Origin: a virus | DNA length: 21,154 nucleotides | IMG/VR virus record: IMGVR_UViG_3300031463_000268 | Direction: 5' to 3' (one strand) | Shown: piece after piece, positions 6,013 through 21,154 of the stretch | Numbering within the stretch: the stretch's first letter is position 1 | Layout of the letters: every line of letters begins with the position of its first letter | Made by a program: the position numbers and the translations under genes | Notes under the pieces: model-generated | The model's input: only the letters and a program-made list of their open reading frames with translations | Databases searched by the model: none | Told to the model about the DNA's origin: nothing

Positions 6013-6198
6013 TTCGCTAAGAAGAAAAAAATTATTTCTAAGGAAGTCAGGGAAGAATTAGATGAAATATATGATTCCTTAGAATATAAGGGGCTTCTAC
6101 CTTCATTTGCCCAGATATTGGATGATCTTAAAGAAACCGTGCAAAAGTATCCAAATGCTAAATCTGTAGATGAGATAATTCAAGAAATTTCAAGATGA
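6013..6198 (+). pseudogene. 5'-truncated antitoxin-like gene
   Basis: Start-less open frame FAKKKKIISKEVREELDEIYDSLEYKGLLPSFAQILDDLKETVQKYPNAKSVDEIIQEISR, beginning right after the repeat array and ending in an ATGA overlap with the PIN gene. Confidence 0.6.
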
Positions 6199-6804
6199 CT
6201 GAAAAAGATCATATACTCGGATTTTTCTGTGATACTGGGTTTATCATAGGGCTTTGCATAGAGACAGATAAACATCATCAAGAGTGCGCCAAATTAACTG
6301 CTAAATATCCTATAGAAAAACATGATTATTTTACATGTTTAATTGTTTGTGATGAGGTAAATCATTGGATTCACCGCCTCACGGGAAAATTAATTGAAGA
6401 AGAAGGGGACAAAGGAACAAAAATAATAGAAAGGAAGCTTAAGAGGTATTTTAATAATTTTTTGTTAAAAATAGAAGTTTTCGATGTCGATGATGTAGAA
6501 ACTGAGGCTACAGAAACTTTAAAAGAAGTATATAATCAGATCATTTTGGATTTGCAGAACTTGATAGGTTATATGACACCTAATCAAATAAATGATATTA
6601 AGATTATAGCCACCGCTTTGATATGGGGGGGCCTATACTAATTGTTATGTGCATAAATGTTTTCTAACTGTTGATAAAGGCCATATATTTGATAAAAGGG
6701 ATAAAATTTACAGGATAGGCTGTAGATGCCTTAAGACAAAAAACCCTCCTCTTAGGATTAAATATGTTGGATGCTCATCAGGTGATGGTAATTTAGCGTC
6801 TTAA
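6195..6804 (+). pseudogene. PIN-domain (VapC-like) nuclease interrupted by a frameshift in a G7 tract
   Basis: FFCDTGFII, CDEV and NDIKIIATAL motifs lie in frame 0, which stops at 6641. The last PIN motif, FLTVDKGH, lies in the +1 frame, open to TAA 6802-6804. The G run is at 6625-6631. Confidence 0.8.
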
Positions 6805-6816
6805 GTTTTATAGTCT

Positions 6817-7209
6817 ATGCTTTTTTTATTTTTGTATATGGGAATAAGTGAATCCTTAAACCGAAGATATGATATGCATAATTCTTCTAATGGTGAATGG
6901 AGACATACTCAACACTACTTCTTCCTGGAGACAATATCTGCAGACCTCAACCTCAACAGGACTGATATACAAAGAATACTCTACATAACACGGAGGGTGG
7001 GGATCAAACAATTACATAAGCGCGCATCAATGGAACAGGTCTTATTGGCCCTTGCAGTATTCATCAAGGAGGAATCAACGGGCCATCCCCTAAGGATAGA
7101 CAGGTACACTATCCTCAAAGAATACAATGTTAACTATAAATTGTACACTACTGTCCTCAGGAATCTCCTCAGATATTATCGTAGCAGATCCCCTGTTGTG
7201 AGGGGATGA
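6817..7209 (+). CDS. TFB/TFIIB-like single cyclin-repeat protein (start uncertain: 6817, 6838 or 6874)
   Basis: LETISADLNLNRTDIQRILYITRRVGIKQLHKRASMEQVLLALAVF...HPLRID matches the helix pattern of TFB core repeat 1; preceded by GEWR. Confidence 0.6.
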   Translation: MLFLFLYMGISESLNRRYDMHNSSNGEWRHTQHYFFLETISADLNLNRTDIQRILYITRRVGIKQLHKRASMEQVLLALAVFIKEESTGHPLRIDRYTILKEYNVNYKLYTTVLRNLLRYYRSRSPVVRG

Positions 7210-7424
7210 ATTTGCAGGATTACAGGATATTCCAGGTCAAAGTATATGATAATTATAATTTGTTTTTGAGTGAGGAGGAGAAATGCCCTGAATGTGAAGG
7301 TATCCATTTTGAGCTGGATTCTGAGTATAATATTTGCTGCAGGTCATGTGGTTTGGTCCTGTCAAGTGTTTGTTGTTATGTTGGTGGAGTGAAATTGGAC
7401 TTACCCTGGGGCCTCCTACTTTAA
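7206..7424 (+). CDS. TFIIB-type zinc-ribbon protein
   Basis: CPECEGIHFELDSEYNICCRSCGLVLS; ATGA-coupled to the upstream gene. Confidence 0.75.
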   Translation: MNLQDYRIFQVKVYDNYNLFLSEEEKCPECEGIHFELDSEYNICCRSCGLVLSSVCCYVGGVKLDLPWGLLL

Positions 7425-7514
7425 CCACCAGTTTTGCAGTATTCTCTAATAACTCTGTTGATGTTCCGACTACGTTACATACATATTATGAGGAGAGAAC
7501 TGAGGTGACAAAAA

Positions 7515-7652
7515 TTGGATCGTGAAGCACTAGGACTCACAGGCCTGATAATATTGGGGATGATATCCTTATACTTCAAACAATACGAATTAGGCTCTGC
7601 ATGTATCGGGGCCATCGCAGGATACATAGCCCGCCCAGGAGAAACAACATGA
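7515..7652 (+). CDS. 45-aa two-TM protein, holin-like
   Basis: TTG start behind GAGGTGA; MDREALGLTGLIILGMISLYFKQYELGSACIGAIAGYIARPGETT; ATGA overlap with the next gene. Confidence 0.65.
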   Translation: MDREALGLTGLIILGMISLYFKQYELGSACIGAIAGYIARPGETT

Positions 7653-7873
7653 CAAAAGAGGGACATGGATGCATACAAAAAGAGAGGATAACAAGCCTCG
7701 AGGAAAGACTGAAAAACATTGAATACGACATCATCGACATCAAGGAGACCAATAAAATGCTAATAGACCTCCAAGCAGAAATAGCAACACTCAAAGCCTA
7801 CCATAAAATCACCATGATACTCCTAACAGCCCTGATCATCCCCATAATCATCACACTCATACGCACAATATAA
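7649..7873 (+). CDS. Coiled-coil protein with C-terminal TM helix (XhlA-like lysis accessory)
   Basis: RITSLEERLKNIEYDIIDIK...AEIATLK then ITMILLTALIIPIIITLI; start ATG 7649 behind AGGAG. Confidence 0.6.
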   Translation: MTKEGHGCIQKERITSLEERLKNIEYDIIDIKETNKMLIDLQAEIATLKAYHKITMILLTALIIPIIITLIRTI

Positions 7874-7913: not shown

Positions 7914-8435
7914 ATGAAAGAAACACCAACCCAAAGAAAAGCATTCGAATACTACTACTCCCTTGGCGACAAAAGAAACCTGAAAAAAGTCGCTGAAAAA
8001 TTTGGATACTCATATGACACAATTAGAGGATGGTCATCCAAACTCAGGTGGCGGGAGAGGATATACCAGTACGAGAAGAAACAACTCCAGGAGATAAGAA
8101 GAGCGCGTGAAGAATTATCAGAGGAGTCAAAGGAGTACTATGCTGACCTCTGGAGCAAATACCTTAAGGCTTGCAGCCTCACACTGGAGGGTTACATTGA
8201 ATCCATCGAGAATGGAGGGGAAGGCCTCACCTTACAGACATCTAAGGACCTCCATAACCTTGGATTAGCAATAGCATTAGGCCTGGGGGATCCTACTGAG
8301 ATACATGAACACCGTGAAAGTGGTGGTGAACTGGAGGATTTGCTGGAGGATCTTGTGTCGGCCACGAAGAACCTGAAGGATGAGGGTATGGATGAAGGCC
8401 TGGATGATGAAGAGGCTGAAGGTGAAGGTGGCTGA
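7914..8435 (+). CDS. terS: Terminase small subunit (N-terminal HTH)
   Basis: RNLKKVAEKFGYSYDTIRGWSSKLRW HTH; directly upstream of and overlapping TerL. Confidence 0.8.
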   Translation: MKETPTQRKAFEYYYSLGDKRNLKKVAEKFGYSYDTIRGWSSKLRWRERIYQYEKKQLQEIRRAREELSEESKEYYADLWSKYLKACSLTLEGYIESIENGGEGLTLQTSKDLHNLGLAIALGLGDPTEIHEHRESGGELEDLLEDLVSATKNLKDEGMDEGLDDEEAEGEGG

Positions 8436-9783
8436 CTGGAAAAAGAAACTGAAAGAATCAGAGAATATTCGAAGCATCCTCCAGGGCCTCTCTGACAGGG
8501 AATTGAAGCTGTTCTATTCAACGATAATATTGAACCCATATATCCCTGTGAACCCCTTCCACAAGCAGATTAAGTTTCTATTGTCAGATGAACGTGAAGT
8601 CCTGTATGGTGGTGCTGCAGGTGGCGGTAAATCAGTGGCTTTACTTATGGGGGCTCTGCAATATGTGCATTACTCTGATTACGCCGCCCTAATCCTGCGC
8701 CGAACCTATCCTGAGCTCAGCCAGGAAGGAGGCCTTATAGACATGGCAAATGACTGGCTTGGGGGGACGGATGCAGAGTGGAATGAACAGAAAAAACGGT
8801 GGACATTCCCCTCCGGCGCTGCATTGCAGTTTGGGCATATGGAACATGAAAAGGACCGCTACAGATACCAGGGGTCGTCATATCATTATATCGCATTCGA
8901 TGAACTCACAGAGTTCCTGGAGTCTCAGTACAGGTTCATGTTCAGGTCATTAAGAAAAGAAGCGGATGACCCTATACCCCTACGCTTCAGAGCCACAAGC
9001 AATCCTGGGGGGGTGGGACATGACTGGGTTAAAACCCGGTTCATAAGCGGTGAGAAAACATTCATCCCCTCCACTTGGAGAGAGAACCCCTACTTGAACC
9101 GTGATGAGTATGAGGAGGCCCTTGATATGCTGGACCATGTCACACGTCGGCAACTAAAAGAGGGTGACTGGGATGTTAGCATCCAGGGCGGGGTTTTCAG
9201 GCGGGAATGGTTTGAGATCATAGACACACCACCCCATGACTTGGTGATGAAACTCAGGTACTGGGACCTTGCAGCAACCCCCCATGATGGTTCGAATGAT
9301 CCTGATTACACGGTGGGCCTATTGATGGGTGTTGATCAGGATGACTACTACTATGTCCTTGATATTCAACGATTCAGAGGATCCCCTGGTGAGGTGAAGG
9401 CCAGGGTCTTGAGGACCGCTGAGGAGGATGGCCGGGAAGTCATCATAGCCAAGGAGGAGGAACCAGGGTCCTCTGGGAAGATTGTCACCGATTACCTGCG
9501 GAGTCTACTGCAGGGTTACACGCTCCGGGCGGACAGGGTAACTGGTGATAAGACGACACGGGCCCTGCCAGTATCCAGTTATGCTGAATCCTTTCGCATT
9601 AAGGTTTTAAGGGCCTCATGGACACAGGCATTCCTTGATGAACTTGAAGCATTCCCTTCTGAGGGCGTGCATGACGACCAGGTCGATGCCTTCAGCGGAG
9701 CATTCAATACATTGGCCATGGAGATGAGGAAGAAGAGGAAGATCTATATCTCCGGACCTCTCAGGAGGATGAGTCATGTTTAA
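8428..9783 (+). CDS. terL: Terminase large subunit
   Basis: Walker A GGAAGGGKS, Walker B YIAFDE, RATSNPG coupling motif, nuclease motifs WDLA and HDDQVDA; GTG 8428 behind AAGGTGA. Confidence 0.97.
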   Translation: MADWKKKLKESENIRSILQGLSDRELKLFYSTIILNPYIPVNPFHKQIKFLLSDEREVLYGGAAGGGKSVALLMGALQYVHYSDYAALILRRTYPELSQEGGLIDMANDWLGGTDAEWNEQKKRWTFPSGAALQFGHMEHEKDRYRYQGSSYHYIAFDELTEFLESQYRFMFRSLRKEADDPIPLRFRATSNPGGVGHDWVKTRFISGEKTFIPSTWRENPYLNRDEYEEALDMLDHVTRRQLKEGDWDVSIQGGVFRREWFEIIDTPPHDLVMKLRYWDLAATPHDGSNDPDYTVGLLMGVDQDDYYYVLDIQRFRGSPGEVKARVLRTAEEDGREVIIAKEEEPGSSGKIVTDYLRSLLQGYTLRADRVTGDKTTRALPVSSYAESFRIKVLRASWTQAFLDELEAFPSEGVHDDQVDAFSGAFNTLAMEMRKKRKIYISGPLRRMSHV

Positions 9784-18394: not shown

Positions 18395-21154
18395 TTGAGT
18401 GATCATAGCCTTGCTGTGCAGGTTCAGATGGATGCTGAGGAAGTGTTGAACGGTTTGAATGAGATTAACAATATGTTATCGAATCTTCCAGGTTCAGTGG
18501 AAGTCGATTTCACCAGTGAAGATGCAATCACTCCTATCCTTGAATCTATCCAGGAGGGTTTGAACAGCCTGCCCTCAGATGTTGAAATCGCTATCTCAGC
18601 ATTCGATGACTTCGCCACAGAGACCATCACAAATCTTAAAGACCTTGTAGAGGCATTGCCATCAGAAGTGAATGTGAACCTCACAGCAGAGGATAATGCA
18701 TCGGATCTGCTTGATTCTTTGAAGGAGAAACTCTCTGAGGAATTCAACATAACATTGAACGTAGAGGATAACGCTACTGAAACACTTACAAACCTGAAAA
18801 ACATCCTTGACGAACTCCCATCCACCGTGGATATCTCCTTGAACGTAGAGGATAACGCTACAGAAATTATTGAAAGACTCCATGACCTCCTAGGGGATAT
18901 CCCTGATGAAGTCACAACCACAGTGAACGCTGAAGTTAATGAAGGGGAGGTGGAGGACCTTAAGACTAAACTTGAGGAGATCGATGGGACCACATATGAT
19001 GCTACGGTTAATGTGGATACGGAATCAATTGAAACAGCTGCAGAAACAACAAATACTTTCAATGGAGCTATCGACGGTTTAACTTCTAAAGTCGCTGGCT
19101 TAACGGCGGGATTCTTATCATATAATAAAACACTCGAACTCCTAGATTATAATAGGATAATTGAGCAGTCAGCAATCCTCACAAATGCAACTCAAAGTCA
19201 GAGAGAAGCCATGGAGGATCTAATCCGTGAAAACTATGTCTACTCACTAGGGATGAAGGGAACAGCGTCAGTGATGTACACACTTGCAGCCTACACCAAT
19301 GATGTGAACCTGACTATGGGATACTTTAAAGCAGCCCTTCTTGGGGTTAAAAGGAGTGGCGAGGATGCCACTGCAGTGACACTGGCACTTGCAAGGATCT
19401 TCAGAGACTTCAATGTCAATGTACAAGAATCGACGGATACCGTGAACCTGCTACTTGGGTTATGGAGAGTTTCAGGTTACTCCTCATTCACACAGTTCAT
19501 TGATACCGTTGATCGCCTTGGGTATTTTTTCAGGCAGGCAGGTTTGAGTGTGGAGGACACAGCCAGGATAATTGCATCAGTAGGCCCTGTTGGCACACGA
19601 CTTCTGAGACCATTCGCTAAAGAGTTAACTGAAATCTCAAGGGAATGGGAGAGGGGTGGTACGGGTGTCCAGGAATACGGTGATAAACTTGAAAAGTTTG
19701 GCGTGGCTGTGAAAGACGCTCATGGTAATATCAGACCATTCCGTGATGTGCTTTTTGATTTTATAGAGGTTCTTTCTCGGATTCCTGATCAGCAGGAACG
19801 TGTTAGGGTGGCCACTGAGGTTTTTGGTGAATCGGTGGGGCCAGCGCTGGCACAGGTGGCAAGTAACTGGAAAACCACGGGTAAGGTAACTGAAGAGGAA
19901 TCTGAGAGGATGAACAAAGCGCTCGGTAAATCAGCGGAAAAACATAGGGATATATTAGGATGGATAAGGTACTATCTGGATCAGTTCGTGATATGGTTGA
20001 ACGATTTTTTCGGTGACATGGGCCTAATCGGAGAATCACTGCTTGTTGGGGTATTCACAAAAGCCGCTGAGTACCTTGCCGAAGGCTTAAAGAGACTCAT
20101 CCCACGTGTCACTGGGGCTATCAGGAGGCTATTGTCCGACGGATTCGATGAATTGAAGGGAAGGTTGCCTGAGGAACTGTCACGCCGCCTCATAGATACA
20201 TTATCTGAAGGATTTGATAAGGCGGCGGGCAAAGCAAAGGATATCATTAAGGGGTTTATTGACACGATTAAGAGGATCCTTGGTGATGAGACAGGCCGTT
20301 TAACACCTAAAATTGAGATCCCTGCAGAATTCAAATTCAAACTCCCCAAAATAGATTTAACTATAGGGGATACTCAGATTGATGACGCTGCAAGGACCCT
20401 CCTAGAGAGATTCACGGGGGGTGTTGATGACGCTGCAAGGGTTAGTATCCCTAAGTTAGGGTCCCGTATAGGATCCTTGCTTATACGGGGTATTGGTGAG
20501 GGTGTGGGTGCGGCTCTCATGACCGTGGACATCCTCGCAAACTTCAGGCAATACCTGAGTGATGCTCTCACAGATCCTACTCAACTATTTGGGCCTATAG
20601 CATACACGACCCCTGAACCTGTCAGGAGGATCTTCAGCCCTGAGAACCTCTTAAAGAGGTTGTACGGCCCTGAGGAGTGGGAGAAGAGGAAGGGTATCCT
20701 CATGGATAATACTAAAAAGTATGTAGAGGATCCCATCCGCGAGCAGCTCCGAAAGTTCGCTGAGAACCCGCCAGGGTACCTCATCCAGGGATTCAGTCAG
20801 ATGTGGAATGATTTCAAATCATGGGTATCATCTCATATACCCAAGTTCAGATGGCCAAGACTTCCCAGCCTCAGCATACCTAACCCTGTGACTGCTATCC
20901 AATCCGCTTGGGCCAAATTCACGTCATGGGTATCATCCAATATACCCCGATTCAGGTGGCCACGCCTACCTAACATCACAATACCCAACATAGTCGGAGC
21001 TATCCAATCCGCTTGGGCCAAATTCAGGTCATGGGTATCATCCAATATACCCCGATTCAGGTGGCCACGCCTACCTAACATCACAATACCCAACATAGTC
21101 GGAGCTATCCAATCCGCTTGGGCCAAATTCAGGTCATGGGTATCATCCAATATA
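18395..21154 (+). CDS. Tape measure protein, 3' end beyond the window
   Basis: TTG 18395 behind GGAGG; 920 uninterrupted codons to the window edge; LEKFGVAVKDAHGNIRPFRDVL is a typical TMP core motif; amphipathic repeats. Confidence 0.92.
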   Translation, partial: MSDHSLAVQVQMDAEEVLNGLNEINNMLSNLPGSVEVDFTSEDAITPILESIQEGLNSLPSDVEIAISAFDDFATETITNLKDLVEALPSEVNVNLTAEDNASDLLDSLKEKLSEEFNITLNVEDNATETLTNLKNILDELPSTVDISLNVEDNATEIIERLHDLLGDIPDEVTTTVNAEVNEGEVEDLKTKLEEIDGTTYDATVNVDTESIETAAETTNTFNGAIDGLTSKVAGLTAGFLSYNKTLELLDYNRIIEQSAILTNATQSQREAMEDLIRENYVYSLGMKGTASVMYTLAAYTNDVNLTMGYFKAALLGVKRSGEDATAVTLALARIFRDFNVNVQESTDTVNLLLGLWRVSGYSSFTQFIDTVDRLGYFFRQAGLSVEDTARIIASVGPVGTRLLRPFAKELTEISREWERGGTGVQEYGDKLEKFGVAVKDAHGNIRPFRDVLFDFIEVLSRIPDQQERVRVATEVFGESVGPALAQVASNWKTTGKVTEEESERMNKALGKSAEKHRDILGWIRYYLDQFVIWLNDFFGDMGLIGESLLVGVFTKAAEYLAEGLKRLIPRVTGAIRRLLSDGFDELKGRLPEELSRRLIDTLSEGFDKAAGKAKDIIKGFIDTIKRILGDETGRLTPKIEIPAEFKFKLPKIDLTIGDTQIDDAARTLLERFTGGVDDAARVSIPKLGSRIGSLLIRGIGEGVGAALMTVDILANFRQYLSDALTDPTQLFGPIAYTTPEPVRRIFSPENLLKRLYGPEEWEKRKGILMDNTKKYVEDPIREQLRKFAENPPGYLIQGFSQMWNDFKSWVSSHIPKFRWPRLPSLSIPNPVTAIQSAWAKFTSWVSSNIPRFRWPRLPNITIPNIVGAIQSAWAKFRSWVSSNIPRFRWPRLPNITIPNIVGAIQSAWAKFRSWVSSNI
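20894..21154 (+). repeat. 105-bp (35-aa) near-identical tandem repeats in the tape measure gene
   Basis: Units start at 20894, 20999 and 21104, with a diverged unit at about 20789; peptide AIQSAWAKFRSWVSSNIPRFRWPRLPNITIPNIVG. Confidence 0.95.

Follow-up and report, generated by a model that had tools for sequence, protein, structure and literature searches.

Directly ahead of the packaging genes of a tailed virus of methanogens, two small neighbouring genes raise the question of how such a virus might steer the RNA polymerase (RNAP) of its host toward its late genes. The locus belongs to IMG/VR record IMGVR_UViG_3300031463_000268, whose whole stretch of 21,154 nucleotides is called the window here. 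Judged by BLAST, it is a psiM100-type virus of the methanogen Methanothermobacter; starting at position 6802, it matches psiM100, a prophage of Methanothermobacter wolfeii, with 97.9% identity and phage psiM2 with 86%. An earlier reading of the DNA (the original prediction) took the two genes, A and B, for a split, order-reversed mimic of the archaeal transcription initiation factor TFB. The overall interpretation of a two-piece TFB-like factor is supported by our analysis, its activity being read from position and homology only. Of the three outcomes that the original prediction listed as refuting it, the two that sequence and fold can address (A not being a cyclin fold, and the genes not co-occurring) were checked, and both checks spoke for the prediction. 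On balance, A and B are probably two halves of a virus-encoded, TFB-derived factor that lacks the second cyclin repeat and acts at the late operon. This reading is carried by five findings: A folds like a cyclin box, B is a ribbon of the TFIIB type, both genes are under purifying selection, they stay paired at the same place in related loci, and some relatives have the two modules fused in one protein.

The zinc ribbon of B and the cyclin box of A

Gene B (positions 7206..7424, plus strand) encodes an acidic protein of 72 amino acids (aa) with an isoelectric point (pI) of 4.4. A TFIIB-type C4 zinc ribbon, CPEC-x14-CRSC followed by G, is encoded at 7284..7352 (plus strand), and the sequence continues as GLVL, as in host TFB. 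The gene is intact in psiM100, psiM2 and eight IMG/VR contigs, always directly after ORF6, which is the name of gene A in the psiM2 and psiM100 records and is labelled a hypothetical protein in both. B itself is unannotated in GenBank/RefSeq psiM100 and psiM2, where it occupies the gap between ORF6 and ORF7; unannotated copies lie at 7206-7424 of the window, 10510-10728 of L001 (psiM100) and 3736-3948 of L002. Between the window and psiM2 the protein is 56% identical, with a ratio of nonsynonymous to synonymous substitution rates (dN/dS) of ~0.24, and all four cysteines and the C-terminal DLPWGLLL are invariant.

Profile comparison of window B alone gave a match to Pfam PF08271 at 19-19.7 bits (E 6e-4 to 1e-3), which is below the 29-bit cut-off, and a best PDB match to the Pyrococcus furiosus TFB ribbon (E 0.08). 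At the level of the family, PF08271 was the top family for 19 of 19 members (best 1.5e-8), and Zn_ribbon_RRN7, the TFIIB-like ribbon of Rrn7, was matched by 4 of the 19. The family profile had 1pft, the P. furiosus TFB ribbon, as its best PDB match (E 1.4e-8), and hhalign of the family against 107 TFBs gave 97.2% (E 3e-11). These PF08271, 1pft and hhalign results bear out the original prediction of a stand-alone TFIIB-type zinc ribbon, and by profile similarity gene B is such a ribbon at family level.

The protein ends in a conserved tail (7377..7421, plus strand; Y-V-G/A-G-x-x-[ILF]-D-L-P-[WY]-G-L-L), of which 19 divergent members have Y-[VS]-[AG]-G-x-x-[ILF]-x-L-P-[WY]-G-[LI]-L in common, and a tail-like motif is kept after the ribbon in two fused forms, P0025 and P0041. 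It is located where the B-reader of TFB starts and has no significant similarity to the B-reader; the tail may stand in for the B-reader or may be the surface that protein A contacts.

Gene A (6838..7209, plus strand; PHROG 30657, listed as unknown in PHROGs) encodes 123 aa with a pI of 10.1, in which a single cyclin-like repeat had been proposed. An AlphaFold2 (AF2) model built from seven homologues, with a predicted local distance difference test (pLDDT) value of 77 and a predicted template modelling score (pTM) of 0.71, showed five helices in residues 18-117, that is, the five-helix cyclin box of the cyclin-fold superfamily. The comparison with TFB/TFIIB structures that had been suggested as a check, run with Foldseek against the PDB, ranked TFIIB, TFB and Brf chains highest, with hardly any others among the leading matches (E 0.4-2, probability 0.8-0.96, query TM 0.5-0.68). 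In the ESM Atlas the nearest named clusters were TFIIB-repeat proteins (score 0.85), which we take as a lead only. Matches in BFVD were giant-virus TFIIBs and the 'putative transcription initiation factor B' of rudivirus SSRV1, the latter with probability 0.97 and TM 0.58 but E 0.34. The modelled fold and this ranking agree with the earlier claim, and the product of gene A is predicted to be a single cyclin box that resembles repeat 1 of TFB/TFIIB.

Sequence methods gave no comparable signal for A. No PF00382 match was present in A or 39 relatives, cyclin-clan matches in the family were limited to weak Cyclin_N/RB_B hits in 3 members, and searches of Pfam, NCBIfam and PDB profiles with the close (A2) or wide (A4) A family yielded nothing significant. 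hhalign of A against 28 or 107 TFBs found the correct register (cyclin 1) at P 0.02-0.09, which is not significant. Thus, the link between A and TFB is one of fold and architecture, since sequence methods fall short of significance. An HNH_3 nuclease (P0055) and a GIY-YIG nuclease (P0058) likewise end in an A domain, and the C-terminus is where homing endonucleases usually have their DNA-binding modules. Because A is basic and its domain takes this place in nucleases, the analogy points to DNA binding, as is also done by TFB cyclin repeats. A distant relative, P0037, has two tandem A-type domains without a ribbon.

Both genes lie on the same strand and end where originally predicted, with B at 7206..7424; the start of A, given as 6817, had to be revised. 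ORF6 homologues all start at MG[IV]xESL, and a TATA-like TTTTATAG (6806-6813) lies ~28 nt 5' of the ATG at 6838, the ATG at 6817 falling between the two. On these grounds gene A is most likely 6838-7209 (123 aa), read as a leaderless transcript from its own TATA-type promoter. The box is part of a promoter-like block of the A-B unit (6802..6837, plus strand), whose promoter function is suggested by the archaeal TATA-to-start spacing; the block TAA[TG]TTTTATAGTCTATGC is kept in the window and in all four other psiM-type genomes aligned, and the DNA directly 5' of it is unrelated between those genomes. The predicted ATGA coupling is present in the window, where the ATG of B overlaps the TGA of A, and is confined to the psiM100 type, as B begins at GTG, 3 nt after the stop of A, in psiM2-type genomes. 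Between the window and psiM2, gene A showed proportions of nonsynonymous and synonymous differences (pN and pS) of 0.20 and 0.87 (saturated), respectively. Since these values and the dN/dS of B show purifying selection, A and B are real, selected genes.

Pairing and fusion in methanogen viruses and genomes

A profile search with the ORF6 family in 1.84 billion representative proteins found 53 relatives, most of which were 120-180 aa long. A was upstream of B in 10 of 10 psiM-type loci, and all five unfused divergent metagenomic relatives with readable context had a B-type ribbon open reading frame (ORF) downstream on the same strand. This ORF was immediately adjacent in P0009, P0010, P0011 and P0012, in three of which it had been missed by gene callers, and ~800 bp away in P0013. 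The adjacency of A and B is conserved across proteins that are only 25-40% identical. Loci with long enough flanks had the layout of the window, in which A and B are followed by small membrane proteins and then by TerS, TerL and portal. In the four virus loci with flanks that were read, either the pair (L042, L048 and the psiM type) or a fused gene (L045) was found a few small genes upstream of the terminase.

Among 329 Methanobacteria genomes searched with the gene-A profile (E <= 1e-3), the domain was present in 135, belonging to 21 of 30 genera; ~45 of the 135 had strong virus-type matches, and many others contained a separate cellular relative of ~170 aa. A B-type ribbon was found within 1.5 kb downstream in 20 of the best 30 genomic loci, and in three (one of them degenerate) of six remaining loci that were rechecked with 5-kb flanks, which brings the pair to ~23 of the 30 best loci overall. 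The co-occurrence and gene order expected for related methanogen viruses and genomes were thus observed in psiM-type, divergent metagenomic and genomic loci alike. A scan of genome contigs with the close-family alignment A1 found no relative, and the 'phylum' genome search covered no families beyond the four of the 'class' search and gave nothing further.

In P0025, P0041, P0042, P0043, P0049 and L086-L088, the two modules are fused in a single protein, in which the ribbon is followed by a linker of 60-80 residues and the A domain. This is the domain order of TFB itself, with roughly the spacing of TFB. The ribbon of P0043, whose gene is just upstream of TerL, was above the Pfam PF08271 threshold (31.8 bits), and the L087 protein matched NCBIfam TFIIB (ribbon plus flank) with E 2.7e-5. 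Because fused relatives run from ribbon to cyclin, the gene order of the split form is reversed with respect to TFB, in line with the original prediction.

Solitary proteins of roughly 146-178 aa, very similar to one another, are encoded at L083 1986-2423, L084 1998-2435 (minus strand) and L085 1920-2453. They are distantly related to the gene-A domain (ORF-level E 1e-10 to 1e-12), match nothing in Pfam, PHROG or NCBIfam, and occupy differing chromosomal neighbourhoods in which no ribbon gene is close by; this may be a cellular one-cyclin protein. Single weak profile matches, in ORFs of similar length, occurred in many other Methanobacteriaceae genomes. In L048 (807-3520), type IV CRISPR-Cas genes (Csf1, a RAMP protein and Csf3), a methyltransferase and a PAPS reductase are located just upstream of the A/B pair, on a contig that is virus-like (TerS, TerL and Mu-type portal). 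In L052 (4323-4517), a 64-aa archaeal histone-fold protein is encoded ~500 bp upstream of a fused ribbon-cyclin gene, among methyltransferase and PAPS-reductase genes.

A probable TFB derivative and its possible roles

One element of the original prediction did not survive. It had read the GEWR tetrapeptide of A (residues 19-22; 6892..6903, plus strand) as a GPEWR-type B-reader. Only the tryptophan is invariant in the close family, psiM2 having SGWK, and W[RK] is found in about half of the members of the wider family. The tetrapeptide is located in A and not after the ribbon; in the model of A it forms the N-terminal edge of cyclin helix 1, aligned near human TFIIB residue 108-112, and fused genomic forms have KWR beside the cyclin domain, far from the ribbon. 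Poor conservation and the position at cyclin helix 1 rule out GEWR as the B-reader. With hhalign, the N-terminal LLxKY of the family stood opposite the RLRKWQ linker helix of TFB, which was not significant, and pLDDT is <50 in this part of the model. Neither a second cyclin repeat (there is one cyclin box in the 123 aa) nor a helix-turn-helix (HTH) reading the B recognition element (BRE) was found in A, B or the fused forms. Thus, with one cyclin repeat, no BRE-reading HTH and a GEWR that is not a B-reader, the A-B pair is a TFB derivative and not a member of the TFB family in the full sense.

The likeness to archaeal TFB and its counterparts TFIIB, Brf1 and Rrn7 lies in the C4 ribbon of B, with the CPEC...C..CGLV signature of host Methanothermobacter TFB, in the five-helix box of A, which superposes on TFB/TFIIB repeat 1, and in the fused relatives, with an N-terminal ribbon, a C-terminal cyclin domain and a linker of TFB-like length. 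In contrast with TFB, the viral factor is split in two proteins in reversed gene order, has one cyclin repeat and lacks the HTH/BRE module and any demonstrable B-reader or B-linker, and A has no significant PF00382 similarity.

The TFB ribbon docks on the polymerase, and TFB repeat 1 contacts the TATA-binding protein (TBP), flanking DNA near the TATA box and the polymerase wall. By analogy, the TFIIB-type ribbon of B would dock on the RNAP dock/clamp and bring its short conserved tail to the position at which the B-reader starts, and A, as a basic, cyclin-1-like domain, would supply the module that in TFB contacts TBP, TATA-flanking DNA and the polymerase wall. The TATA-type promoter of the unit would give a leaderless A-B message, and the two proteins, once assembled, would recruit host polymerase to the late operon directly behind the unit or co-activate it there. 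The pair might thereby be an alternative initiation factor that does not depend on the BRE, or else a co-activator like TFB3, active alongside host TFB/TBP. We infer that A and B associate with each other, bind RNAP, TBP and DNA, and affect late transcription. A more specific proposal, namely that A and B together with host TBP suffice to direct host RNAP to BRE-less viral late promoters, is tentative, and we hold it with somewhat less than even confidence.

Several points weigh against a late-acting TFB-derived factor. No B-reader (GPEWRAF-type) or B-linker could be demonstrated in A or B, B was modelled poorly by AF2 (pLDDT 50), no shared late-promoter motif was recognisable across the late region, and a 2026 psiM2 preprint contains no expression data. 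Moreover, three of the six rechecked genomic loci had A without a B-type ribbon within 5 kb, so A can occur alone. Finally, activation and inhibition cannot be told apart from sequence.

A TFB-derived pair could also be a decoy that turns off host transcription or changes its bias, in which the ribbon and cyclin-1 domain would occupy the polymerase dock/wall or TBP and block host TFB. The modules kept are indeed those that contact polymerase and TBP, with the HTH/BRE module gone and no demonstrable B-reader or B-linker, and archaeal viruses do target RNAP with TFB-mimicking inhibitors such as RIP. However, a virus without its own polymerase depends on host RNAP to transcribe the late genes behind the pair, the pair has a conserved position before the packaging genes, as phage late activators do, and TFB3, the closest truncated cellular precedent, is an activator. 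We consider a decoy unlikely. Still less probable is that A is a sequence-specific DNA binder unrelated to the polymerase, serving at a packaging (pac) site together with the adjacent terminase, as a repressor or in partition, with B as a generic ribbon partner. The nuclease fusions of the A domain (HNH in P0055 and GIY-YIG in P0058), its basic character, the proximity of the pair to TerS/TerL, the loci with A and no B, and the solitary ~170-aa cellular relative would all suit such a role, but the ribbon of B is specifically of the TFIIB/Rrn7 type (PF08271 in 19 of 19, with a TFB ribbon as best PDB match), the fused forms reproduce the domain order and spacing of TFB, and a TerS with its own HTH is already there. 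A mere coincidence, in which A is just a five-helix bundle and B a pair of CxxC zinc knuckles that are adjacent without joint function, is highly improbable, since fold ranking, ribbon family, repeated fusions in TFB order, conserved adjacency and purifying selection converge.

Late region, known relatives and meaning

The TFB-derived pair is located, as had been predicted, at the early/late boundary before the packaging genes. A and B directly precede, all on the plus strand, a small membrane-protein ORF of 45 aa (7515-7652), ORF7 (7601-7873), TerS (7914-8435; with an HTH of its own), TerL (8380-9783) and the portal gene; the order after ORF6 in psiM2 and psiM100 is ORF7, TerS (ORF8), TerL (ORF9), portal and structural genes, and the 45-aa ORF is likewise without annotation in their records. 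A 'lysis' function assigned earlier to the downstream genes was not confirmed (XhlA E 0.4). The intergenic region before the late genes (7425..7514, plus strand) is a candidate target promoter. It is nearly identical between the psiM2 and psiM100 types, as is the whole downstream region; since the late region around it is equally conserved, this conservation alone is no proof of a regulatory site. A search of 7425-7514 showed neither a canonical TATA box nor a repeated motif. In L042 (5600-5860), B is followed by AT-rich palindromic repeats and a terminator-like GC hairpin with a long run of T, after which the late genes begin. This arrangement suggests separate transcripts for the A-B unit and the late operon of L042.

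A mosaic junction is present at window position 6802, where the psiM2/psiM100 homology begins. Upstream of it the window (6195-6804) has a 148-aa ORF and a 51-aa ORF; the same place is taken by the inserted fragment IFa and ORF5 in psiM100 (L001 6786-10078), by ORF5 in psiM2, and by yet other genes in L007 and L010. At the end of the window (20813-21154), three tandem copies of a repeat with a 105-nt period, 81% identical, lie inside a large ORF that runs past the window end and is a tape-measure protein according to the psiM100 annotation.

Sulfolobus TFB3 is a truncated TFB paralogue of the UV response, without B-finger and HTH, which has been proposed to bridge RNAP and TFB1-TBP. Likened by description, Sulfolobus/Saccharolobus TFB3 and the viral pair are both shortened TFBs in which the ribbon is retained and the B-finger and the DNA-reading HTH are missing. 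TFB3 is a single cellular polypeptide of Crenarchaeota, whereas the A-B pair is viral, comes in two pieces, belongs to Methanobacteriales and has a complete first cyclin box; a single polypeptide is found in the fused relatives and not in the window. TFB homologues are also on record in the Italian rudiviruses SSRV1, MRV1 and ARV3, in an Asgard wyrdvirus and mobile genetic elements, and in thaumarchaeal integrative and conjugative elements, and are presumed to redirect host RNAP. They too are TFB-family genes on archaeal mobile elements, and SSRV1 was among the BFVD fold matches of A. They differ in that they were annotated as TFB homologues in their papers, the SSRV1 protein being a single chain of 270 residues, whereas the psiM-type pair is split, has one cyclin box, went unrecognised (A as 'hypothetical', B unannotated) and occurs in tailed viruses of methanogens.

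Bacterial siphophages have RinA/ArpU-type sigma-like late regulators just upstream of the terminase, to which lambda Q and P2 Ogr are functional analogues. The resemblance is that of small regulator genes at the early/late boundary before the packaging genes; the siphophage regulators derive from the host initiation factor sigma, and A and B would, by analogy, derive from TFB, the initiation factor of archaea.

In the searchable literature on psiM2, archaeal tailed viruses and Methanobrevibacter viruses, we found no paper that likens ORF6 or its partner to TFB. The 2026 psiM2 preprint makes no mention of ORF6, TFB or zinc, and TFB is unmentioned in the archaeal Caudoviricetes survey and the MSTV1 paper. 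The earlier statement that no split viral version had been described is consistent with this, in that no paper on this pair was found, viral TFB homologues in general being known. What is new is the two-gene, one-cyclin, order-reversed TFB-like form, which is common in tailed viruses of Methanobacteriales.

The A-B pair is a good candidate for how these methanogen viruses steer host RNAP. psiM2 and psiM100 are among the few cultivable methanogen virus systems, and their host genus Methanothermobacter now has genetic tools. Gene B should enter the psiM2 and psiM100 annotations, and PHROG 30657 can receive a predicted fold and role. With its ribbon set apart from cyclin 1 and cyclin 2 lost, TFB has here been dissected by evolution, which could reveal which of its modules are enough for polymerase recruitment. 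If A and B do suffice together with host TBP, they would play in archaea the part that sigma-like late regulators play in bacterial phages. Such a factor would be widespread in Methanobacteriales tailed viruses, including those of gut Methanobrevibacter, and the hosts would have a free-standing cellular relative of it with one cyclin box.
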